From: Eledone cirrhosa
Taxonomy: Eukaryota
Direction: 5' to 3'
Length of the DNA: 64,000 nt
NCBI GenBank assembly: GCA_964016885.1
Contig: OZ024757.1
Span: 41,850,001-41,914,000, forward strand
A program made the translations under genes and the position numbers. This document shows, piece after piece, positions 1,299-61,195 of this stretch. Under the pieces are notes generated by a model. It did no database searches and was not told where the DNA came from. It was given only the letters and a program-made list of their open reading frames with translations. Numbering within the stretch: position 1 is the first letter of the stretch; every line of letters starts with the position of its first letter.

Positions 1299-1414
1299 AG
1301 AAAAAGGTTCAGGACCCCGACAGCAGAGCTCAAGCCGTTTCAACGGCTATTTGAGTTCAGAAATAGTCGTCAAAATGGCTTGAGCTCTGATGTTGGGGTC
1401 CTAAACCTTTTCCT
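1299..1414. repeat. Long palindrome (54-bp arms, 8-nt loop) made of two inverted hammerhead 3' halves, embedded in (TA)n
   Basis: Arms 1299-1352 and 1361-1414 are reverse complements with 8 mismatches by hand alignment. The minus strand of the left arm reads tGAAA-cggc-ttgagctct-gctg-TC-ggggt. Confidence 0.85.
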
Positions 1415-1690
1415 ATATATATATATAGAGAGAGAGAGAGGTTTAGGATCTTGTCGATTGATTCCATCAATATATATATATATATGTATATATATGTGTG
1501 TGTCCTCTTCCTGCTATATCAAGCATTAAACTAATATATCCCTTCCATATACTGTACCGATTGTGTTGTCATTTCTGTTTACCTTCTACATATATATATA
1601 TGAATGTATATGTATGTTTATATATGCATATGTATGTATATATATGTATATGTATGTATGTTTATATATATATATATATATATGTGTTTA

Positions 1691-1749
<59 letters not shown>

Positions 1750-2304
1750 TCATATATATGTATGTTTATAATATATAGGTGTATATGGCTATATCAATGT
1801 TTGCATTATTCCACTTTAAGTTCTCATCAACAACATCTCCATGGTAATATGTCATTGTATATTTACTTTAATATCTGCCATTAATATGACAGTGAAAGAG
1901 CTTCCCTTTTTCAATCCACCATTTTCAATCCATTTTCTCGTGTTTATAATTCCAGACATTCTCATCAAACTATTTAAAATTCCTTCTACAATCTTACAAT
2001 ATTTATTTAGCATTTTATTTTACATATATTTCATCTTGTAACATTTTTTTAAATCTTTTTTTTACATTATTTACACACATGTTTATATATATATATTTAT
2101 ATATATATGACACTCCATATATATATACATATATATATGTATATTATTTAGGCTTATATTTATATGCATTTACTGTTTATATGTATATATAAACATATAC
2201 ATATATATATTTATTTATCTAGCGTGCATATGTTTATATAAGCATTTACTGTTTATTTGAATATATATAGATATATATATAGATATATATATGTAGTATA
2301 TGTT

Positions 2305-2355
2305 AGTTTCAGAAGATCCCGTTAAGGGTGAAAGCAGCGATTCATTGCTTAAACT
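2305..2355 (+). ncRNA. Degenerate type I hammerhead ribozyme motif (core CUGAAGA mutated to CAGAAGA)
   Basis: agttt-CAGAAGA-t-ccc-gttaa-ggg-t-GAAA-gca-gcgattcat-tgc-T-T-aaact. Helices I (agttt/aaact), II (ccc/ggg) and III (Agca/tgcT) all pair. AATAAA lies about 15 nt downstream. Confidence 0.6.
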
Positions 2356-2475
2356 TTAATCTGTTATTTTAATAAATAGTTATATATATATATATATAGC
2401 GAGGGAAAAGTGGCAAGGAACCAGGTGGACCATAACGCACCAAAGTACTCAATACTTAGGGTAGTAGAGTGGGTA

Positions 2476-2592
2476 ATAGGAGTAAGTAAGACCCCGACGG
2501 CTGAGCTCAAGCCATTTCGACGGCTAATTCCAGTACAGAATTAGCCGTCGAAACGGTTTGAGCTCAGCCGTCGGAGTCTTACTTACTCCTAT
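2476..2592. repeat. Long palindrome (55-bp arms, 7-nt loop) of two inverted hammerhead 3' halves, related to 1299-1414
   Basis: Arms 2476-2530 and 2538-2592 have 3 mismatches. The plus strand reads cGAAA(2550-2553)-cggtt-tgagctc-agccg-TC(2571-2572)-ggagt. Confidence 0.9.
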
Positions 2593-3368
2593 ATATATAT
2601 ATATATATATATACAGATCTAAATTTCCCCATTATTTGTTGAGTATACTATGGTTTGGTTTGTTTGTTTTTTTGTAGTGTAGGTTGTTGTTGTTTGTGAG
2701 GGTGGGGACATATATTTACTCCCCCCCCCCTCCCTCACATCCCACCTTTTATTCCTTAGCCAAAATATGTCTTCCTTAATTTTTCTTAGTTTCAATATAT
2801 TTCATGACACTGCAAATTAGAATATACACATCTACCTTCACACACAAACACATATATATTTACACATACACACATACATCTATACACACACACACATATA
2901 TGTATATACATGCGTATATACACATACATATACATGTATATATACATATAGACAAAGACAAACATTTTTACACACACAAACAACATATGTGCATACGAAC
3001 ACATAAAAACACACACTCCCAATCACATACTTATACACAAGCATTCACACACACACACACTCAGAGAAACATCCACAAACATATGTTCCCTTATAAGCAC
3101 AAACATATTAGACAAACACACACTTATACACACACAAATAGACACACAAACGCATACAAAAATCTTTAAAAAGACCTCCTTATTTACTAAAGGGAAGTTG
3201 ATAGCCTGACAAACTCTGAATAAAATATAAAATTGGAACATTCCATATAAATAGAAAATAATTTCTAAATATATTTTAATATAAAATTCCGCAGAAGAAT
3301 ATCTTTAGAAAGATTGAACTTCACAAATTATTTAGCCTCAGGTCTTCAATTGTGACAGGGATCAGAGA

Positions 3369-4050
3369 TTAACTCTCAACGTCCTGCTCCACATGAAGCT
3401 GCATTAACAAGACATTGCTGAAAAGTACAAAACAACACTAGGACTGTATCACACTTTAACTCTTAACATCCTGTACCACATGAAGCAGCACTATGGCTGC
3501 ATCATATTAACTTTTTATGTCCTGTACCCACATGAAGCCACATTAAGAAAGACATTCTTGAAAAGTACAAAACAACACTATGACTGCATCACATTAATCC
3601 TTTAGCATTTACATTACTCTATATATACTATTGTATTTTCGTGGTTAAGGCTTTACCTCACATAATATCTCGCATTACTCTATATATACTATTGTATTTT
3701 CACTGTAAAGGCTTTACCTCACATAATATCTCACATAACATTTACATTACTCTATATATACTATTGTATTTTCGTGGTTAAGGTTTTACCTCACATAATC
3801 ATGTCACATAATATCGAATCTATGAGATTTTGATATTATTTATTTTGAGAAAAATACCTTAACATCAGTATGAGTGGCCAGTTACGGACAGTTTGAACAG
3901 AAAAAAGTGAGAGAATTCTGGCCGGATACAGCTGGTTTACATCCTGTACCACATGAAACCACATTAATAAGACATTCTTTAAAAGTACAAAACAACACTA
4001 TGACTACATCACATTAACTCTTAACATCCTGTACCACACGAAACCACATT
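3369..4050. repeat. Degenerate ~87-bp tandem repeat, interrupted by a MITE
   Basis: Units start TTAA(C)TC/TT at 3369, 3456, 3507 (after a short 51-bp unit), 3594 and about 4014. Shared blocks are CCTGTACCACATGAA and AAAAGTACAAAACAACACTA. Confidence 0.8.
3598..3939 (+). mobile_element. piggyBac-type MITE, right TIR lost
   Basis: TTAA followed by TCCTTTAGCATTTA. The body is colinear with the complete copy at 63190-63610, including the internal CATTACTCTATATATACTA repeats. It ends at CAGCTGGTTTA. Confidence 0.8.
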
Positions 4051-4529
4051 AGCAGGTCAGCTGCTGACTCATCAATGTCATCAACAGGCTTAGCTGCTTC
4101 AGCGAGGTTGGAATAAATTTGGTTTGAAAACTGACTCAGCTCAGACAAATCAAGATTCTTTATATTATAAAACCAAATGAGGTTTCAGGCAGTTTGGTCG
4201 TATAAAGGTTAAATAAAATGTTTTATAGACAAACTGATGGCATAAGTGAATGTTAGCTGTGAAAGGTTAAATAAATGGAGAATGTCTTGGAGGAAAATAA
4301 AATAAAAAATAAACAAATATAAAATAAATAAATAAAATGTATACAATCTTGAATAGAACCAATTCTACTGAAGTAGGTAAAATTCTGATTTTCTGATTTT
4401 CTCTGGCAAAACTACCTTGGAATTATTTCTAAATCAATATTGCTAAATGTGTGTGTCTGTGTGTGTATACAGGTGTGTCTATGTGCATGTGTATGTATAT
4501 GTATATATATGTATATATATATATATATA

Positions 4530-4602
<73 letters not shown>

Positions 4603-4695
4603 ATATATATACATCTGTGTGTTATTGAAAGCTGAGAGAAAAGAGTACTCAATACAGAAGTAGAGTTTTAATACACATTATTCAGGCTAAATAAT

Positions 4696-4758
4696 GAGTC
4701 TTGTTACTCTGGAGTTTCACCTGTTTATCACAGGTGAAACTCCAGAGTAACAAGACTC
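4696..4758. repeat. Perfect palindrome (29-bp arms, TTATC loop) of two inverted hammerhead 3' halves
   Basis: GAGTCTTGTTACTCTGGAGTTTCACCTGT-ttatc-ACAGGTGAAACTCCAGAGTAACAAGACTC. Each strand reads acagg-t-GAAA-ctc-ca-gag-T-A-acaag. Confidence 0.9.
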
Positions 4759-5450: not shown

Positions 5451-5790
5451 TGGAGGCACATGGCTTAGTGGTTAGAGCATTGGCCTTTCAATCAAAAGGT
5501 TGTGAGTTCAATTCTCAGACCAGGTGATGTGTTGTTTCCTTGAGCAAGACACTTTATTTCACATTGCTCCAGTTTACTCAGCTGTAGAAATGAGATGGTA
5601 GGGACTGGGGTCCCTATTATTCCACTGCAAAGTGGTCGTGTAGGTGCCACGGCAAAAAAGCACCCAGCACTCACTGTAAATGAGGTCGGTGTTAGGAAGG
5701 GCATCCAGCTGTAGAAATCAAGCCAGAATCAGTTCCCATCCCACCCTTGCAAGCAGGGAAAAGTGGATGTAAAATGATGATGATGATGAT
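5451..5790 (+). mobile_element. tRNA-derived SINE with CORE-like middle and RTE-derived 3' tail ending in (GAT)n
   Basis: A box TGGCTTAGTGG and B box GAGTTCAATTC. Middle CCTTGAGCAAGACACTTTA. Tail GTTAGGAAGGGCATCCAGCTGTAGAAA...GATGATGAT is shared with the 3' UTR of the LINE at 20173-20345. Confidence 0.85.
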
Positions 5791-10289: not shown

Positions 10290-10328
10290 CTGATGATTCC
10301 AGTATTGTTTTAGGATGAAACGATTGTA
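10290..10328 (+). ncRNA. Hammerhead core with decayed helix I
   Basis: CTGATGA-t-tcc-agtattgtttta-gga-t-GAAA-cg-at-tg-T-A. The flanks do not form a good helix I. Confidence 0.5.
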
Positions 10329-10373
10329 ACTTATTAAATGTTTTAAACACTATTTGATTGTCATTTACATTGT

Positions 10374-29254: not shown

Positions 29255-31200
29255 CCATGCAAGGTTAGATGAAAAAAGCAGTTTCAGGGCATATACTTCT
29301 CATAGAATCTTCTACAGCCAAGGCAAACTCGGTGAATATGTTTCTCACATGATTCCCTATGACTTGATAAAACGTAGTCAATGATTCTTTAGCAAGCAAA
29401 AAAAGCTAGAGGCTCTCCTAAGGCGAGCTTAACTGTAATCAATACCATGTTGGTTTCATGCTGGCCCATCCCATACCACCAGGTTAGAGGGTGAAAGTAA
29501 CGGCTTTAGGGTGTGGTCTGCTAATAGGCTCTCCTAGGGCCAGCTAAACCCTGGTCAATCCCAGGGTAGAGGGTGAAAAACTGTATACATCTCATATGAT
29601 CTACGGGTAGCTAAACCCTGGACTATGCGATGTTAGAGGGTGAAAGGAGCAGTTTTAGGGTGTTTACTTCCCATAGGACCTCTTACAGTCATCTAAACCC
29701 TAGTCACCACAAGCTTAGAGGGTGAAAGAAGCAGTACAGCCACCTAAACTCTGGTCAATATCCAGCTTTACGGTGTATACGTCCCATATGATCTCCCACA
29801 GCCAGCTAAACCATAGTCAATAACAGGTATTTTCCATGGGTCATACATGCCATAACTTGCTCATATATGTGTGTGTTATAGTTGTCAATTGTAGATTCTG
29901 TACAGACAGGACAAAGGAATATTTGGTATTATAAGTTTCAATCCATGCCTGCATCACTTGGTAGTGTTGAGTTTATTTCACCTTCATCTTTTCAATAGCA
30001 AGAACACCCAAGAGGCACCTCGTTTACATTACAAGATGCAATTGTGGTCGATTTTAGGAGATCAATAAAGTATTGTCTCCAACGAAGATCCTATGGCTTA
30101 CTAAATGCAGGTGAGAGGGTGGAAGGAGCAGTTTCAGGGACTAAACTTATCGTAGGAACCTCTACGGCCTGTTAAACCTTGCATAATGCCAGGTGAGAGG
30201 GCGGAAGGAGCAGTTTAAGGGCCTAAACTTATCGTAGGAACCTCTACAGCCTCCTAAACCCTGCTTAATGCCAGGTGTAATGGCGAAAGGAGCAGTTTAA
30301 GGGCCTAAACTCTGGTTAATGCCGGGTGAGAGGGCGAAAGGAGCAGTTTAAGGGCCTAAACTTATTGTAGGAACCTCTACAGCCGCCTAAACCTTGCTTA
30401 ATGCCAGGTGTAATGGCGAAAGGAGCAGTTTAAGGGCCTAAACTCTGGTTAATGCCGGGTGAGAGGGCGAAAGGAGCAGTTTAAGGGCCTAAACTTATTG
30501 TAGGAACCTCTACAGCCGCCTAAACCTTGCTTAATGCCAGGTGAGAGGGCGAAAGGAGCAGTTTAAGGGCCTAAACTTATTGTAGGAACCTCTACAGCCG
30601 CCTAAACCTTGCTTAATGCCAGGTGAGAGGGTAGAAGGAGCAGTTTAAGGGCCTAAACTTCCTGTAGGAACTTCTACGGACTCTTAAACTCTGGTTAATG
30701 TCAGGTGAGAGGGCGAAAGGAGCAGTTTCATGGCCTAAACTTCCAGTAGGAATTTCTACCGTCGCCTAAACCCTCGTTAATGCCAGGTGAGAGGGTGAAA
30801 GGAGCAGTTTAAGGGCCTAAACATATCGTAGGAACTTCTACGGCCTCCTAAACCCTCGTTAATGCCAGGTGAGAGGGTGGAAGAAGCAGTTTAAGGGCCT
30901 AAACTTATCGTAGGAACTTCTACGACCTGTTAAACCCTGCTTAATGCCAGGTGAGAGGGCGAAAGGAGCATTTTCATGGCCTAAACTTATCCTAGGAACC
31001 TCTACGGCCTCCTAAACCCTGCTTAATGCCAGGTGAGAGGGTGGAAGGAGCAGTTTAAGGGCCTAAACTTATCGTAGGAACCTCATGCGACCCAGAACAG
31101 GTTAATGATCAGGTTAGAGTGACAGTTTTAGAGCGTACATTTCCTATAGTATCTCCTCCGGCCACCCAAACCTTGGTCAATACCAGGCTACAGGGCTAAC
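29255..31200. repeat. 82-bp satellite/minisatellite (conserved core about 30100-31085, degenerate flanks)
   Basis: Unit AATGCCAGGTGAGAGGGCGAAAGGAGCAGTTTAAGGGCCTAAACTTATCGTAGGAACCTCTACAGCCGCCTAAACCTTGCTT, with starts at 30185 and 30267. Two 51-bp truncated units. A unique insert lies at about 29830-30090. Confidence 0.9.
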
Positions 31201-31608
31201 ACTTTATTTGATAGTTACCTCCCTTGAAGAATGCAAACAAAAAATAAGAGTTATCTCCCTTGATAAGGCGATTACGGGAATGACCTTTCTGAAATTATTC
31301 ATAAGGGTGGGTAGTTATTTCAAGAATTATCTCCCTTATCAAGATGCCTGAGTTAATTCCCTTTATTATAAAGCCTAGTGGAGATACTGCTTTTTATTTT
31401 TATTGATTTAACTCTTGTTTACATCCTTTCATTATTCGTACTGGAAAGTGTTTTAGATACTTCCTCCTTTCGAAAGCGTTAATTAAAAGTAATTTCTTTT
31501 TTCATTATTATTGTCAGAGTAAACTGAACACAATTCGTATTTAGAAATATAAACTTTTTTATTAACAGATACTTCAGGACACTTGTAAACACTTTCACAA
31601 TAAAAGCA

Positions 31609-34600
31609 GCATTTTACTCATTTATGATGCCGTTTTAGTCATTTTCGTCATTTGTGATGCCGTTTGAGCCATTTTAAAATGACACTAAAATGGCTAAAAC
31701 GGCATCATAAATGACGAAAATTACACTAAAATGGCTAAAACGGCATCATAAATTATTAAAATGAGTCTAAAATAGCTAAAACGGCATCATAGATGGCTAA
31801 AATAACTCTAGAATGGCTAAAACGGCATCATAAATGAGTAAAGTGGCTAAAACGTCATCATGAATGACTAAAATGGCTAAAACGGCTTCTTAAATGACTA
31901 AAATGGCTAAAACGGCATCATAAATGACTAAAATGGCTAAAACGGCATAAATGTCATTCATGATGCCGTTTTAGACATTTTAGTCATATATGATGACGTT
32001 TTAGTTATTTATGAGGCCGTTTCAGTCATTTTAGTCATTTATGATACCGTTTTAGCCATTTTAGTCATTTATGATAACGTTTTAGCCATTTTACTCATTT
32101 ATGATGCCTTTTTCATGAATGACTAAAATGGCTAAAACGGCATCATTAATGACTAAGATCGCTAAAACGGCATCGTAAATGACTAAAATGGTTAAAACGG
32201 CATCATAAATGGCTAAATTGACTCTAAAATGTCTAAAACGGCATCATAAATGAGTAAAATAGCCAGAACGTCATCATAAATGAATAAAATGTCTAAAACG
32301 TCATCGTAAATGACTAAAATGTCTAAAGCGGCATCATAAATGACTAAAATGACTCTAAAATGTCCAAAAAGCCATCATAAATGAGTTAAATGGCTAAAAT
32401 GGCATCACAAATGAGTAAAATGGCTAGAACGTCATCATGAATGACTAAAATGGCTAAAACGGCATCATAAATGAGTAAAATGGGCTAAAACGTCATCATA
32501 AATAACTAAAACGTCATCGTATATGGCTAAAAATGCATTATAAATGGTAAAAACGTCATAATAAATGACTAAAATGGCTAAAACGGCATCATATATTACT
32601 AAAATGACTCAAAAATGGCTAAAACGGCATAATAAATTAGTACAATGACTCTAAAATGGCTAAAACGGCATCATAAATGACTAAAATGGCTACAAAGGCA
32701 TCATAAATGAGTAAAATGGCTAAAACGGCATCATAAATGACTAAAATGGCCAAAAAGGCATCATAAATGAGTAAAATGACTAAAACGTCATCATAAATGA
32801 CTAAAATGGCTAAAACGGCATTATAAATGAGTAAAATTACTCTAAAAAGGCTAATACGTCATCACAAATGTCTAAAATGGCTAAATGATGACGTTTTAGT
32901 CATTTATGATTACGTTTTAGCTTTTTTACTCATTTATGATGCCGTTTTAGCCATTTTTGAGTCATTTTAGTCATTCATGATGCCGTTTTAGTCATTTATG
33001 TTGACGTTTTAGTCATTTATGATGCCGTTTTAGCCATTTTTGAGACATTTTAGTAATTTATAATGCCATTTCAGTCATTTATGATGACGTTTTAATCATT
33101 TATAATGCCGTTTTAGCCATTTTAGAATGAATTTAGCCATTTATATTGCCATTTTAGTCATTTATGATGACTTTTGGTCATTTTACCCATTTATAATGCC
33201 GTTTTAGCCATTTAGTCATTTATGATGACGTTTTAACCATTTTACACATTTATGATGCCTTTTTGGCCATTTTAGAGTCATTCTAAAATGGCTACAAAGC
33301 ATCATAAATGAGTAAAATGGCTAAAACGGCATCATAAATGACTAAAATGGCCAAAAAGGCATCATAAATGAGTAAAAATGACTAAAAACGTCATCATAAA
33401 TGACTAAAATGGCTAAACGGCATTATAAATGAGTAAAATTACTCTAAAAAGGCTAATACGTCATCACAAATGTCTAAAATGGCTAAATGATGACGTTTTA
33501 GTCATTTATGATTACGTTTTAGCTTTTTTACTCATTTATGATGCCGTTTTTAGCCATTTTGAGTCATTTTAGTCATTCATGATGCCGTTTTAGTCATTTA
33601 TGTTGACGTTTTAGTCATTTATGATGCCGTTTTAGCCATTTTTGAGACATTTTAGTAATTTATGATGACGTTTTAGTCATTTATGATGACGTTTTAGCCA
33701 TTTTACTCATTTATGATGCCGTTTTAGCCATCTTAGTCATTCATGATGACGTTTTAGTCATTTTACTCATTTATGATGCCTTTTTACCATTCTAGAGTCA
33801 TTTGTGACTAAAATTTCTAAAACGGCATCATAAATGACTAAAATGACTCTAAAATGGCAAAAAAGGAATCATAAATGAGTAAAATGGCTAAAACATCATC
33901 ATAAATGACTAAAACGTCATTATAAATTACTTAAATGGCTAAAACGGCATCATAAATGGCTAAATTGACATTTTAAGTGAATAAAATGGCCAAAACGTCA
34001 TCATAAATGACTAAAATGGCTAAAACAGCATCATAAATGAGTAAAATGCCCAAAACGTCGTCATAAATGACTAAAACGTCATAAAAAATGACTAAAATGG
34101 CTAAAACGTCATCATAAATGACTCTAAAATGGCCAAAAAGGCATCATAAATGAGTAACATGACTCTAAAATGGCTAAAAGGCTATTACGTCATCACAAAG
34201 GACTAAAATGGCTAAAACGGCATCATAAATGTCTAAAATGGCTAAATGTTGACGTTTTAGTTATTTATGATTACGTTTTAGCTATTTTACTCATTTATGA
34301 TGCCGTTTTAGCCATTTTTGTGTCATTTTAGTCATTCATGATGCCGTTTTAGTCATTTATGTTGACGTTTTTGTCATTTATGATGACGTTTTAGCCGTTT
34401 TCCTCATTTATGATGCCGTTTTAGCCATTTTTGAGACATTTTAGTAATTTATAATGCCATTTTAGTCATTTAAGATGACGTTTTAATCATTTATAATGCC
34501 GTTTTAGCCATTTTAGAATGAATTTAACCATTTATGTTGCCGTTTTAGCCATTTTAGTCATTTATGATGACTTTTGGCCATTTTACCCATTTATAATGCC

Positions 34601-37600
34601 GTTTTAGCCATTTAGTCATTTATGATAACGTTTTAGTCATTTCTGATGACGTCTTAACTATTTTACACATTTATGATGCCTTTTTGGCCATTTTAGAGTC
34701 ATTTTAGTCATTTATGACTGTAAAACGTCATCATGAATGACTAAAATGGCTAAAAGGGCATCATAAATGACTAAGATGGCTAAAACGGCATCATAAAGGA
34801 CTAAAATTGCTAAAACTGCATCATAAATGGCTAAATTGACTCTAAAACATCTAAAACGGCATCATAAATGAGTAAAATGGCCAAAACTTCATCATAAATG
34901 ACTGAAATGGCTAAAACGGCATCATAAACTAGAATGACTCTAAAATGGCTAAAAAGGCATCATAAATGACTAAAACGTCATCATAAATTACTAAAATGAC
35001 ATTTTAGAGTCATTTTAGTCATTTATGACACCGTTTTAGTCATTTAGGATGACGTTTTAGCAATTTTACTCATTTATAATGCCTTTTTAGCCATTTAAGA
35101 TGCCGTTTTAGCCATTTAACTCATTTATGATGCCTTTTTTCCATTCTAGAGCCATTTATGACTAAAGTTACTCTAAAACGGCATCATGAATGACTAAAAT
35201 TACTCTAAAATGGCTAAAAAGGAATCATAAATGAGTAAAATGGCTAAAACGTCATCATCAATGACTAAAATGTCATTATAAATGAATAAAGTGGCTAAAA
35301 CGGCTTCATAAATGTCTAAAATTGCTAAAACGGCATCATAAATGACTAAATTGTCCAAAAACGCATGATAAATGAGTAAAATGGCTAAAACGTCATCATC
35401 AATGACTAAAATGGCTAAAAAGGCTAATACGTCATCAGAAATGACTAAAACGTCATCATAAATGACTAAAACGGCATCATAAATGACTAAAATGGCCAAA
35501 AAGGCATCATGAATGAAGAAAATGGCTGAAACGTCATGATAAATGACTAAAACGTCATTATAAATTACTTAAATGGCTAAAACGGCATCATAAATGGCTA
35601 AATTGACTCTGAAATGGCTAAAACGGCATCATAAGTGAATAAAATGGTTAAAACGTCATCATAAATGACTAAAACGTCATCATAGATGGCTAAAATTGCG
35701 AAAAAGGCATCATAAATGAGTAAAATGGCTAAAACGTCATCATAAATGACTAAAATGACTCTAAAATGGCAAAAAGGCATCATAAATTAGTAAAATGGCT
35801 AAAAAGGCTAATACGTCATCACAAATGACTAAAACGGCATCATAAATGTCTAAAATGGCTAAATGTTGACGTTTTATTCATTTATGATTACGTTTTAGCT
35901 ATTTTACTCATTTATGATGCCGTTTTAGCCATTTTTGTGTCATTTTAGTCATTCATGATGCCGTTTTAGTCATTTATGTTGACGTTTTAGTCATTTATGA
36001 TGAGGTTTTAGCCACTTTACTCATTTATGATGCCTTTTAGCCATTTTTGAGTCCTTTTAGTAATTTATAATGCCATTCTAGTCATTTATGATGACGTTTT
36101 AATCATTTATAATGCCGTTGTAGCCATTTTAGAATGAATTTAGCCATTTATGTTGCCGTTTTAGCCATTTTAGTCATTTATGATGACGTTTTAACTATTT
36201 TACACATTTATGATGCCTTTTTGGCCATTTGAGAGTCATTTTAGTCATTTATTATGACGTTTTAGCCATTTTAGTCATTTATGATGCCGTTTTAGCCATC
36301 TTTAGTCATTTATGATGATGTATTAGCCTTTTTATCCATTTTAGAGTCATTTTAGCCATTTATGATAATGTTTTAGCCATTTTCCTCATTTATGATGCCT
36401 TTTTGGCCATTTTATTCAATATGACGACGTTTTAGTCATTTAACTCATTTAAGATGCCTTTTTAGCCAATTTTACCATTTATGATGCTGTTTTAGTCATT
36501 TTAGTCATTTATAATGACGTTTTAGTCATTTACGATGGCGTTTTAGCCATGTTACTCATTTATGATGCCTTTTTCACCATTTTAGCCATTTATGATGACG
36601 TTTTAGCCATTTTACTCATTCATGATGCCGTTTTAGCCATTTTAGTCATTTATAATGACGTTTTAGTCATTTTAGCCATTTATGATGACGTTTTAGTCAT
36701 TTACTATGACGTTTTAGTCATTTAACTCATTTACGATGCCTTTTTGGCCATTTTAGTCATTTGTGATGCCGTTTTAGCCATTTTAGACATTTATGATGCC
36801 GTTTTAGCCATTTTACTCATTTATGATGCTTTTTCGCCATTTTAGCCATTTATGATGACGTTTTAGTCATTTATGATGCCGTTTTAGCCATTGAACTAAT
36901 TTATGATACCTTTTTTCGCCATTCATGATGATGTTTTAGCCATTTTACGCATTTATGATGCCGTTTTAGCCATTTCAGAGTTTATTTATCCGTTTATGAT
37001 GCTGTTTTAGCCACGTAAGTCATTTATGATGATGTTTTAGCAATTTTACTCATTTATGAAGCCTTTTTGGCAATTTTAGTCATTTATGATGCCCTTTTAG
37101 CCATTTTAGACGTTTATGATGCCGTTTTAGCCATTTTTAGTCATTTATGATGACAATTTAGTCATTTATGATGACGTGTTAGCCTTTTTAGAGTCATGTT
37201 AGTCATTTATGATGACGTTGTAGCCATTTTACTCATTTATGATGCCTTTCTGGACAATTTAGTCATTTATAGCGACGTTTTAGTCATATATGATGACGTT
37301 TTGGGCATTTTACTCATTTAAGATGCCGTTTAGAATCATTTATGATGACGTTTTAGTCATTTATGATGACGTTTTGGGCATTTTACTCATTTATGATGCT
37401 GTTTAGAATCATTTATGATGACGTTTTAGTCATTTACGATGACGTTTTAGCCATTTAACTCATTTATGATGCCTTTTTAGCCATTTTACCAGTTAATATG
37501 CTGTTTTAGTCATTTTTAATGACGTTTTAGTCATTTATGATGTTTTAGCTATTTTACTCATTTATGATGCCTTTTTGGCCATTTTATCATTTATGATGCC

Positions 37601-49600: not shown

Positions 49601-52600
49601 ATCATAAATGACTAAAACGTCATTAAAAATTGCTAAAATAACTAAACAGCATATTAAATGGCTAAAATGGCTAAAAAGGGATCATAAATGAGTTAAATGG
49701 CTAAAACGTCATCGTAAATGACTAAAACATCATCATAAATGGCTAGAACGTCGCCATAAAGGACTAAAATGTCCAAAAAGGCATCATAAATGAGTAAAAT
49801 GGCTAAAACGTCATCATAAATGACTAAAATGACAATAAAATAGCTAAAAAGGCTAATACGTCATCAGAAATGACTAAAAATGGCTAAAACTGCATCATAA
49901 ATGTCTAAAATGGCTAATACGGCATCATAAATGTCTAAAATGGCCAAAAAGGCATCATAAATGAGTAAAATAGCTAAAAATCATCATAAATGACTAAAAC
50001 GTCATTAAAAATGACTAAAACAGCATATTAACTGGCTAAAATGGCTAAAAAGGCATCATAAATGAGTAAAATAGCTAAAACATCATCATAAATGACTAAA
50101 ACGTCATTAAAAATGACTAAAGCAGCATATTAACTGGCTAAAACGGCATCATAAATGGCGGAATAAACTCTGAAATGGCCAAAACGGCATCATAAATGAG
50201 TAAAATGCCCAAAACCTCATCATAAATGACTAAAATGGCCAAAAAGGCATCATAAATGAGTAAAATGGCTAAAAAAGCTAATACGTCATCAGAAATGACT
50301 AAAAATGGCTAAAACTGCACCATAAACGTATAAAATCGCTAAAACGGCATCATAATTGAATAAAATGGCCAAAAAGGCATCGTAAATGAGTAAAATAGCT
50401 AAAACATCATCATAAATGCCTAAAACGTCATCGTAAATGACTAAAACATCATCATAAATGGCTAGAACGGCTAAAATGGCATCATAAATGAGTAAAATGC
50501 CCAAAACGTCATCATAAATGACTAAAACGTCGCCATAAATGACTGAAATGTCCAAAAAGGCATCATAAATGAGTAAAATGGCTAAAACGTCATCATAAAT
50601 GACTAAAATGACAATAAAATGGCTAAAAAGGCTAATACGTCATCAGAAATAACTAAAACATCATCATAAATGAATAAAATGGCTAAAACTGCATCATAAA
50701 CGGCTAAAATCGCTGAAACGGCATCATAAATGAGTAAAATAGCTAAAGCATCATCATAAATGACTAAAACATCATTAAAAATGACTAAAACAGCATATTA
50801 ACTGGCTAAAATGTCTAAAACGGCATCATAAATGAGTAAAATGCACAAAACGTCATCATAAATGACTAAAATGGCAAAAAAGGCATCATAAATGAGTAAA
50901 ATGCCCAAAACGTCATGTTTTAGCTATTTTTCTCATTTATGATGCCTTTTTGGCCATTTTAGTCACTTATTATGCCGTTTTAGCCATTTTAGACATTTAT
51001 GATGCAGTTTTAGCCATTTTAAGCCATTTTACACATTTATGATGCCTTTTTGAACATTTTAGTCATTTATGGCGTCGTTTTAGTCATTTATGATGATGTT
51101 TTGGGCATTTTACTCATTTATTATGCCGTTTAGAGTATTTTATGATGACGTTTTAGTCATTTACGATGACGTTTTAGCCATTTAACTCATTTATGATGTC
51201 TTTTTAGCCAGTTAATATGCTGTTTTAGTCATTTTTAATGACGTTTTAGTCATTTATGATGATGCTTTAGCTATTTTACTCATTTATGATGCCCTTTTGG
51301 CCATTTTAGTCATTTATGATGCAGTTTTAGACATTTTAGCCAGTTAATATGCATTTTACTCATTTATTATGCCGTTTAGAGTATTTTCTGATGACGTTTT
51401 AGTCATTTACGATGACGTTTTAGCCATTTAACTCATTTATGATGTCTTTTTAGCCATTTTAGACAGTTAATATGCTGTTTTAGTCATTTGTAATGACGTT
51501 TTAGTCATTTATGATGATGTTTTAGCTATTTTACTCATTTATGATGCCTTTTTGGCCATTTTAGTCATTTATGATGCAGTTTTAGTCATTTTTAGTCATT
51601 TCTGATGACGTATTAGCCTTTTTAGCCATTTTATTGTCATTTTAGTCATTTATGATGACGTTTTAGCCATTTTACTCATTTATGATGCGTTTTTGAACAA
51701 TTTAGTCATTTATGGCGACGTTTTAGTCTTTTATGATGACGTTTTGTGCATTTTACTCATTTATGATGCCGTTTTAGACATTTTAGCCAGTTAATATGCT
51801 GTTTTAGTCATTTTTAATGACGTTTTAGTCATTTATGATGATGTTTTAGCTATTTTACTCATTTATGATGCCTTTTTGGCCATTTTATTCAATTATGATG
51901 CCGTTTCAGCGATTTTAGACATATATGATGCAGTTTTAGCCATTTTTAGTCATTTATGATGACGTTTTAGTCATTTCTGATGACGTATTAGCTTTTTTCG
52001 CCATTTTACTCATTTATGATGCCTTTTTGGCCATTTTAGTCATTTATGGCGACGGTTTAGTCATTTATGATGAGGTTTTGGGCATTTGACTCATTTATGA
52101 TGCCGTTTTGGCCATTTCAGAGTTTATTTAGCCATTTATGATGCCGTTTTAGACATTTAAGTCATTTATGATGCTGTTTTAGCCATTTTAGTCTTTAATA
52201 ACGAATTTTTCGTCATTTATGATGAGATTTTAGCCAATTTACTCACTTATGATGCGTTTTTGAACAATTTAGTCATTTATGGCGACGTTTTAGTCTTTTA
52301 TGATGACGTTTTGTGCATTTTACTCATTTATGATGCGTTTTAGACTTTTTTAGCAGTTAATATGCATTTTTAGCATTTATGATGAGGTTTTAGTCATTTA
52401 AGATGAGTTTTAGCATTTAATTTATTTATGCGTTAATTTTNNNNNNNNNNNNNNNNNNNNNNNNNNNNNNNNNNNNNNNNNNNNNNNNNNNNNNNNNNNN
52501 NNNNNNNNNNNNNNNNNNNNNNNNNNNNNNNNNNNNNNNNNNNNNNNNNNNNNNNNNNNNNNNNNNNNNNNNNNNNNNNNNNNNNNNNNNNNNNNNNNNN

Positions 52601-58600: not shown

Positions 58601-61195
58601 AAAGTGGCTAAAGCATCATCATAAATGACTAAAACGTCATCATAAATGGCTAAAAAGGAATTATAAGTGAGTAAAATGCCCAAAACGTCATCACAAATGA
58701 CTAAAACGTCGTCATAAAGGACTAAAACGACATCATAAATCAGTAAAATGCCCAAAACGTCATCATAAATGACTGAAACGTAATTATAAATGAATAAAAT
58801 GGCTAAAACAGCATCATAAATGACTTAAATAGCTAAAACGGCATCATAAATGAGTAAAATAGCTAAAACGTCATCATAAATGACTAACATGACTCTAAAA
58901 TGCCTAAAAAGGCTAATAGGTCATCTTAAATGACTACAACGGCATCATAAATTACTAAAATGGCCAAAAAGGCATCATAAATGAGTAAAATGCCTAAAAC
59001 GTCATCATAAATGATTAAAACGTCATCATAAATGACTAAAACGTCATCATAAATGTGTAATATGGCTAAAACGTCATCATAAATGACTAAAATGGCTAAA
59101 AGGCTAAAACGTCATCAGAAATGGCTAAAATGGCATCATGTCTAAAACGGCATCGTAAATCACTAAAATGGCCTAAAAGGCATCAAAAATGACTTAAATG
59201 GCTAAAACGTCATCATAAATGGCTAAAACGGCATTAAAAATGAGTAAAATGCCCAAAACGTCATCACAAATGACTAAAACGTCGTCATATTGACTAAAAT
59301 GGCCAAAAAGGCATCATAAATTAGGAAAATGGCTAAAACATTATCATAAATGACTAAAATGACTCTAAAATGGATAAAAAGGCTAATACATCATCATAAA
59401 TGACTAAAAATGGCTAAAACGGCATAATAAATGACTAAAATATCCAAAAAGGCATAATAAATGAGTAAAATGGCTAAAACGTCATCATAATTGACTAAAA
59501 CGTCATCATAAATGACTAAAATGGCATCATAAATGAGTAAAATGCTCAAAACGTCATCATAATTGACTAAAATGGTTAAAGCGGCATCATAAATGACTAA
59601 ATTGACGCTAAATTGGCTAAAAAAGCTAATACGTCATCATAAAAGACTAAAACGTCATCATAAATGATTAAAACCTCATCATAAATGACTAAAACGGCAT
59701 CATAAATGACTAAATTGACTCTGAAATGGCTAAAACGGCATCATAAATGACTAAAATTACTCTAAAATGTCCAAAGAGGCATCATAAATGAGTAAAATGG
59801 CTAAAACGTCATCATAAACGACTAAAACGGCATCATAAATGTGTAAATGATGACGTTTTAGTCATTTATGATGACGTTTTAGCCATTTTACTCATTCATG
59901 AGTTTTAGCAATTTTTGAGTCATTTTACTAATTTATGATGCCGTTTTAGCCATTTATGATGGCTTTTTAATTATTTATAATGCCGTTTTAGCCATTTATG
60001 ATGCTGTTTTAGCCATTTTAGTTATTTATGATGCCGTTTTAGAGTCATTTTATTCATTTATGATACCGTTTTAGTCATTTTAGTCATTTATGATGGCGTT
60101 TTCGTCATTTTAGTCATTCATGATACTGTTTTAGCCATTTTAGTCATTTATGATGACGTTTTAGCCATTTTACTCATTTAGCATGCCTTTTTAGCCGTTT
60201 TAGCCATTTTCATCATTTGTGATGAGGTTTTAGCCCTTTTCCTCATTCATGGTGCCGTTTTAGCCATTTTTGAGTCATTTTAGTAATTTATGATGCCGTT
60301 TTACCCCTTTTAGTTATTCATGATGACGTTTTAATAATTTATTATGCCGTTTCAGCCATTTTAGAGTGAATTTAGCCATTTATGATGCCGATTTAGCCAA
60401 TTTAGTCATTTGTGATGGCGCTTTGGCCATTTTACTCATTTATGATGCCGTTTTAGTCATTTATGATGAAGCTTTATTCATTTATGATGACGTTTTAGTC
60501 ATTTATGACGACGTTCTAGCCATTTTACTCATTTATGATGCCTTTTTGGCCATTTTACTCATTTATGATGACGTTTTGGCCATTTTAGTCACTTATGATG
60601 ACGTTTTAGCCATTTTAATCAATTATGATGCCATTTCAGCCATTTATACTCATTTTAGTCATTTATGATGCCGTTTTAGACATTATACATATTTATGATG
60701 ACGTTTTAGCCATTTTACTCATTTATAATGCCTTTTTAGCCCTCTTAGTCATTTATGATGCCTATTTAGCCATTTTAGTCATTTATGATGATGTTTTAGC
60801 CATTTTACTCATTTATAATGACGTTTTAGTAATTTATGATGACGCTTTAGCCATTTTAGTCATTCATGACGCTGTTTTAGTCATTTATGATGTTTTAGTA
60901 ATTTATGATGCCGTTTTAGCCATTTTAAAGTCAATATAGCCATTTATGATGCCGTTTTAGTCATTTAAGATGACGTTTTACTCATTTATGATGCCTTTTC
61001 AGCCATTATGATGCCGTTTTAGCCATTTTAATCATTTATGATGACGTTTTAGTCATTTATAATGCCGTTTTAGCCATTTTAGAGTGAATTTAGCCATTTA
61101 TGATGCCGTTTTAGCCATTTTATTCCTTTATGATGCCGATTTAGCCATTTATGATGACGTTTTAGTCATTTATGATGACGTTTTAGCGATTTTCT
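31609..61195. repeat. ~29.6-kb complex satellite of 21/30/39-bp modules with alternating orientation
   Basis: Modules ATTTATGATGACGTTTTAGTC (21 bp) and ATTTATGATGCCGTTTTAGCCATTTTAGTC (30 bp), plus extra 9-bp ATTTTAG(C/T)C units. Both strands are used in alternating blocks. Confidence 0.98.
52441..52640. other. Assembly gap (200 N)
   Basis: Run of 200 N. Flanking satellite shows many 1-bp indels, consistent with low-quality contig ends. Confidence 0.99.

Follow-up and report, generated by a model that had tools for sequence, protein, structure and literature searches.

Half-hammerhead palindromes in the genome of Eledone cirrhosa as probable abortive insertions of Penelope-like elements

A 64,000-nucleotide stretch of the Eledone cirrhosa genome (GenBank assembly GCA_964016885.1, contig OZ024757.1, positions 41,850,001 to 41,914,000 of the forward strand; this whole stretch is referred to as the window) carries three palindromes, P1, P2 and P3 (Table 1), whose arms are 3' halves of hammerhead ribozyme sequences. 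The palindromes are insertions of 145-190 bp from two families of Penelope-like elements (PLEs), families A and B. Such palindromes are probably abortive PLE insertions, in which two short cDNAs lie head to head, each primed on a different strand of a cut (TA)n tract. Priming would use two fixed positions on the RNA, and both cDNAs would run off its capped 5' end. The wider proposition, that twin priming at two fixed sites of one RNA is obligate for PLE integration and that thousands of run-off cDNA pairs, comparable to "strong-stop" products, record the capped start base by base, is in our judgement evenly balanced between right and wrong.

Palindromes P1 to P3

The three palindromes are real, the best palindrome score in the region (43) lying far above the maximum reached in 40 shuffles (10; microsatellites removed). 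They stand out as GC-richer stretches in a (TA)n-rich genome of 3.0 Gb. P1 and P2 belong to family A and P3 to family B, and beyond the palindrome proper P2 and P3 each carry a tail on one side only. Arms contain GAAA (AAAA in the right arm of P1), helix III, a GUC or GUA triplet and the 3' strand of helix I; CUGANGA and a complete core are missing from both strands of P1-P3, which are therefore not type I hammerheads. An Rfam scan gave no hammerhead among the 150 of 211 matches listed, mostly microsatellite or hairpin matches to microRNA (miRNA) models. The arms of P2 meet bluntly, its short arm extending 7 nt more 5' than its long arm, and those of P3 are joined through helix II complementarity (CCTG/CAGG). 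The initial annotation of this DNA is borne out in its count of three palindromes from two families and in its description of the arms without CUGANGA, but it overlooked the one-sided tails of P2 and P3.

Both sequences are abundant in the genome. A 29-mer from the family A arm had 23,267 exact matches and a 30-mer from the family A tail had 19,949; 3,634 arms continued into parent sequence. Candidate copies numbered 2,262, the 40 best loci being 96-100% identical.

Outer and inner ends of the arms

Positions were counted from the G of GAAA in parents and arms alike. Family A arms have two fixed outer ends, at about +40 (short) and +120 (long), 80 nt apart; at both, the parent continues with TAT and the insertion with (TA)n. 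The two ends are almost always paired, with 89 of 97 family A palindromes being long+short, none long/long, none short/short and 8 of other types with an atypical end. The same pairing was found in 27 of 29 palindromes of a core-anchored, unbiased family A set and in 37 of 43 from family B, where 5 were short/short and 1 long/long. Long inverted copies have the same two outer ends as the short palindromic insertions, here called stubs.

Inner ends were scored in 64 family A palindromes (128 arms), after leaving out the 33 of 97 that came from junction-biased queries. None of the 128 arms was templated beyond -22, and most inner ends fell between -12 and -22; for arms reaching past -30, by contrast, the ends are spread between -32 and -1302 (38 alignments). 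In family B the palindromic arms reach no further than about -33, at the A of TTAGTT. In both families this wall coincides with a TYAGT motif, which matches the initiator consensus TCAKTY.

An untemplated G commonly precedes the A of this motif. Genome-wide counts for family A were 3,256 G against 624 A at -19 and 336 G against 882 A at -20. Among local family A loci, G was present in 12 (in 9 of them not explicable by the partner arm) and A in 3, and none of 28 long copies carried the G. For family B, 26 G and 9 A were counted by eye among the 100 matches listed.

Two other sources of the ends were considered and rejected. Ribozyme cleavage would place 5' ends at +23, where there is no pile-up; 2 of 80 long arms lie at +22 to +24. 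A stop of the reverse transcriptase (RT) at the helix II stem does not fit ends that fall in the loop. As a separate observation, family A inner ends in loci L151, L155, L205 and L236 carry runs of 10-17 T/A, suggestive of slippage or tailing at the cDNA 3' end.

Parent elements

The family A parent was recognised at locus L204, which reads inverted short-ended arm, RT, endonuclease (EN), 1.3-kb 3' untranslated region (UTR), hammerhead region and long tail; on its minus strand, RT motifs and VIY..YIG were identified by inspection, and Pfam gave no match for the RT and EN frames of L204. RT followed by GIY-YIG within one open reading frame (ORF), together with an inverted pseudo-long terminal repeat (pLTR) bearing a tail at one end, identifies it as an EN-containing (EN+) PLE. 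Of 30 RT-anchored loci, 11 have the hammerhead and tail running on into the ORF, so the family A sequence represents the pLTR/ORF junction. A Pfam GIY-YIG match was rejected as evidence for family A, since it belongs to an unrelated piece in L205. A second Hydra-like PLE is nested in a family A copy at L203 (3425-900, minus strand). Its RT is 48% identical to that of family A and its RT homologs carry RT-related Pfam families; the homolog search, being one with the nested element, was dropped as direct evidence and bears on family A only through that identity.

Family A is assigned to the Hydra clade by the motif criteria of PMC8557442 (section 11), the resemblance to the alignments of its supplement being judged by eye. 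It has DKT, RWR, the linker CNCPDRSSC, CNLC, CKH, one Cys between VIY and YIG, and (TA)n targets, corresponding to features of the clade, including Hydra-1_Obim: an RT with DKT and an RW-basic motif, a CxCx5C linker, CxxC and CxH motifs around the catalytic E/N, a C-terminal GIY-YIG without CCHH, and insertion into (TA)n (PMC8557442). The family A hammerhead, with its U3-A8 core and long helix II loop, differs from the Hydra-1_Obim hammerhead listed there; the 3'-half motifs of families A and B were not found in the supplement text searched.

Canonical CUGANGA was present in none of 22 long family A copies, whose cores read TTGATAA (12), TTGAGAA (6), CTGAGAA (3) and TTGATAT (1); the U3-A8 pair occurs in 18 of the 22 and is a hammerhead variant known from Schistosoma PLEs (PMC4209133). 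A search by CUGANGA for a family A parent had given 22 matches, which on inspection were incidental junction or flank sequence and were discarded, the parent core being the variant one. The helix II loop is about 33 nt and helix III is a hairpin of 6-7 bp; the three-way fold was the minimum-energy structure in 2 of 5 copies folded.

The intact parent hammerhead of family B, with 434 exact matches in the genome, has the predicted parts of a type I hammerhead: CUGANGA, helix II, GAAA, helix III and NUH, with TCTTGT pairing with ACAAGA as helix I. Its tail motif is shared with family A, and by eye hammerhead and tail resemble a Hydra record in the supplement of PMC8557442. Similarity to PLE RT or EN lies within 4 kb in 3 of 20 long family B loci and is collinear in L371. 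The ORF of L371 showed no DNA match with the other two loci, and none of 66 family B tails continued into an ORF; the link of family B to an RT/EN ORF is suggestive. At G000:C294:66407-66604, at least four tandem copies of a family B junction with CUGAUGA on both strands occur at 41-bp spacing.

Initial annotation of the palindromes as helix II fold-backs

The initial annotation placed a helix II hairpin at each apex and proposed that helix II serves as the fold-back or template-switch point. The origin from PLE hammerheads, and the view that the inversions arise repeatedly during copying, are supported. The apex is helix II in P3 only; in P1 and P2 the apical hairpin is the inverted arm pairing with itself, and the apex lies within the approximately 33-nt helix II loop of the parent, whose helix II has a different 5' strand. 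Parents with CTGANGA ahead of the same helix II, which that account expected, exist for family B; family A has parents of the variant core described above, and its helix III is longer than the minimal one expected.

If copying folded back at helix II, the whole loop should be kept at the junction. No such junction was found in family A, either genome-wide or in 65 sampled palindromes. In family B it was found at 7 loci, P3 included, against 54 whose two arms each carry CUGAUGA (exact patterns of comparable length were used for the two counts), and CUGANGA was kept on at least one strand in 20 of 34 sampled palindromes. P3, with its junction of the helix II microhomology type, fits helix II fold-back and is a minority form; the mechanism fails as a general rule for either family.

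Proposed mechanism

The enzyme would cut both strands of a (TA)n target, and each target 3' end would anneal to a UAU in the RNA, at +40 for one strand and at +120 for the other. The TYAGT motif would be the transcription start and the extra G a copy of the cap, both cDNAs reaching the capped 5' end of a transcript initiated in the pLTR and often copying the cap. As a rule a single RNA molecule would supply both cDNAs, with the proximal cDNA displaced by the distal one; after trimming, their ends would be joined bluntly, through 1-4 nt of microhomology (at times that of helix II, P3 being a case) or by short fills. Long inverted copies would come from RNA that reads through from an upstream copy. 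Transcripts initiated at the promoter would give stubs only, given how close the priming sites are to the 5' end of the mRNA. Loss of the CUGAUGA half would be incidental, because the start lies in the helix II loop in family A and just 5' of helix I in family B, and for the latter reason most family B palindromes would retain the core.

Several of these steps have precedents. For an anole PLE, both strands are cut and extended, two internal start sites bound the tail, a dimer is predicted, and ribozyme cleavage is not needed (PMC11167929). Promoter and start of Penelope have been located in the pLTR (PMC2377424), and at 5' junctions of full-length L1 an extra G marks the cap (PMC11702581).

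Other observations weigh against this mechanism. Start site and cap are deduced from DNA alone. Inner ends are scattered over -12 to -22 rather than placed at -18 (10 of 128 at 18, 19 of 128 at 17), which needs trimming or several starts, and a small imperfect palindrome of the parent at -22..-9 by itself accounts for the -22/-12 junction class. About half of the listed G cases (27 G and 6 A among 100 listed, by eye) could be the last base of the partner arm. P1 is short/short in (TA)n, L185 has two long ends, and the short arm of P3 ends early. Discordant subfamily haplotypes occur on the two arms of 9 of 67 palindromes, and where haplotypes are shared this is also compatible with two RNAs from one locus or with later conversion. 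The start site used by the anole enzyme in vitro was no different between strands (PMC11167929). The sampled loci were the first matches on the largest contigs rather than a random draw, and exact patterns favour young copies.

Alternative explanations

The two cDNAs could come from two separate RNAs, one on each subunit of an asymmetric dimer, giving the long and the short cDNA, which would run off at the start site as before. This accommodates the long+short pairing as well as the extra G, and the discordant palindromes, some of them differing at two diagnostic sites (L206, L216), speak for it. Both arms share the subfamily haplotype in 58 of 67 palindromes, though, against a random expectation of 14.6, so that two RNAs would require one active source locus per cell, and long arms that halt near the priming site of the short arm (L243 at +49, L255 at +59) fit a collision on one RNA. 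We consider two RNAs unlikely.

Self-priming, by which a single cDNA (or an antisense template) would copy itself back, with fold-back at helix II as a special case, is less probable still. It was put forward for junction palindromes of PLEs in PMC3846280, as self-priming on an antisense template. Shared haplotypes would follow from it, as would microhomologies of 1-4 nt, present at 23 of 64 family A junctions, and the helix II junctions of P3 and six other family B loci, which have no counterpart in family A. In 22 of 61 palindromes, however, the 5' reach of the short arm exceeds that of the long arm by 3 nt or more, and in 12 by 10 nt or more (a count that excludes L185, with its two long ends, and L217 and L259, which are indel artefacts). 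Since the short arm so often carries sequence missing from the long arm, neither arm is a copy of the other, and self-priming is disfavoured because neither can have been the template of the other. Junctions with no spacer, and junctions in which both arms are complete and a G is added (L150), also argue against it, and it explains neither the stop of the second arm at +40 nor the extra G on the sense strand.

A very improbable alternative is MITE- or SINE-like propagation of a non-autonomous family, which the initial annotation had also suggested, from a small number of master palindromes, the variety of junctions arising from later asymmetric deletion of unstable centres. Palindrome centres are prone to deletion, and the thousands of near-identical copies would agree with such a spread. 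Against this, 55 of the 64 family A palindromes have distinct junctions, and the six junctions that recur are each found in two or more subfamily haplotypes; untemplated G and short fills are not products of deletion, and the long inverted copies have the same two outer ends. An assembly artefact of fold-back reads is scarcely credible in view of decay-type substitutions between arms, two fixed end sites and a position-specific G at the junctions.

Other features of the window

Rows for the palindromes and for neighbouring features are collected in Table 1. Stubs of different families are often adjacent in one (TA)n tract, as P1-P3 are, with further cases at L113, L139, L190, L293, L328 and L358.

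Table 1. Palindrome arms and other features noted in the window (position 1 is the first letter of the window)
Feature	Position	Strand	Remarks
P1	1300-1413		Palindrome
P1 left arm	1300..1352	-	Family A (subfamily variant) PLE end; short outer end about +40, inner end -11
Untemplated G before P1 right arm	1353	+	Position -19; parent C or T; candidate copy of RNA cap
P1 right arm	1354..1413	+	Begins at -18 (A of initiator-like motif); GAAA decayed to AAAA; short outer end
Apparent third short arm fragment	1440-1458	+	P1 subfamily (by eye)
Tail-like sequence	1502-1583	+	Resembles tail after intact hammerhead in L019 flank, a further family (by eye)
Decayed hammerhead-like piece	2308-2378	+	Other family; CAGAAGA, helix II, GAAA, long helix III; adjoins P2 on left; also flanks L036
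P2	2479-2589		Palindrome
P2 tail	2399-2478		80 nt, one-sided
P2 long arm	2399..2530	-	Inner end -12; GAAA at 2518; helix III, GUC, helix I 3' strand; 80-nt tail to distal end +119; (TA)n flank
P2 short arm	2531..2589	+	Inner end -19; GAAA at 2550; proximal-site end +39; (TA)n flank
P3	4696-4758		Palindrome
P3 tail	about 4615-4695		One-sided
P3 long arm	4615..4734	-	Family B; helix II both strands; GAAA at 4718; helix III, GUA, helix I 3' strand; tail motif common to family A
P3 short arm	4730..4758	+	Family B; GAAA at 4736; outer end +22, shorter than usual short end
tRNA-like head	5461-5518	+	29.2 bits; probable short interspersed element (SINE)
CUGAUGA..GAAA core	10290-10340	+	Plausible helix II; probably other PLE end
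CUGAUGA..GAAA core	19886	-	Plausible helix II; probably other PLE end
Tandem arrays	30100-31084 and 17668-18549		82/51/133-bp and 49-bp units
Satellite	31600-35100, 50800-51020, 59780-59900		21/30-bp units; repeated strand inversions giving long palindromes

Relation to known systems and significance

Published descriptions already cover the inverted pLTR whose tail is on one side only, palindromes at junctions, PLE hammerheads, and hammerheads paired close together on opposite strands. The stubs share with the inverted, 5'-truncated pLTRs of EN+ PLEs the head-to-head repeat, the one-sided tail, AT-rich or (TA)n targets and the pLTR hammerhead (PMC8557442, PMC3846280). They differ from the pLTRs described there in that the insertion consists of the two ends only, the family A tail is about 80 nt rather than 30-40, and inner ends are concentrated at an initiator-like motif, where an extra G occurs. 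The Poseidon element PAc of Anolis, of a different clade from family A, has in common with it two internal RT starts bounding the tail, cutting and extension of both strands, a hammerhead at the pLTR/ORF junction and the use of uncleaved RNA; the available text of that account holds no treatment of inverted junctions, of two-site pairing per insertion or of start-site run-off (PMC11167929). Non-LTR retrozymes (10.64898/2026.07.22.740005) are likewise PLE-derived repeats that are short and non-coding and contain type I hammerhead sequence, but they are tandem direct repeats with complete ribozymes, one per unit, whereas P1-P3 are inverted, single and without a core, and so are not retrozymes. 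The literature search did not find obligate long+short pairing, an initiator-like wall with an extra G, or twin priming or run-off in PLEs, although supplements, figures and subscription papers may contain them.

In twin priming by L1, the second primer is used at variable internal sites and the two resulting pieces do not overlap; in the E. cirrhosa elements both sites are fixed and both cDNAs would copy the same stretch, which gives a palindrome. Two-strand priming, an inverted junction with microhomology and an extra G at capped 5' ends are features that L1 twin priming shares with the stubs (PMC11702581).

The origin of the inverted repeats and one-sided tail of PLEs is named as unresolved in PMC8557442, and the population of copies described here makes the formation of the inverted repeats directly testable, including in the existing in vitro PLE system. 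The stubs would amount to thousands of natural reaction products with countable signatures, namely arm pairing, shared haplotype, wall and extra G, and the approach maps candidate start and priming sites of PLEs without recourse to anything other than genomic sequence. If the proposed mechanism is true, it alone would account for the inverted pLTR, the one-sided tail and the restriction of full-length copies to those made from tandem read-through transcripts. For the octopus itself, thousands of young hairpins with arms of about 60 bp are a possible source of double-stranded RNA wherever they are transcribed.

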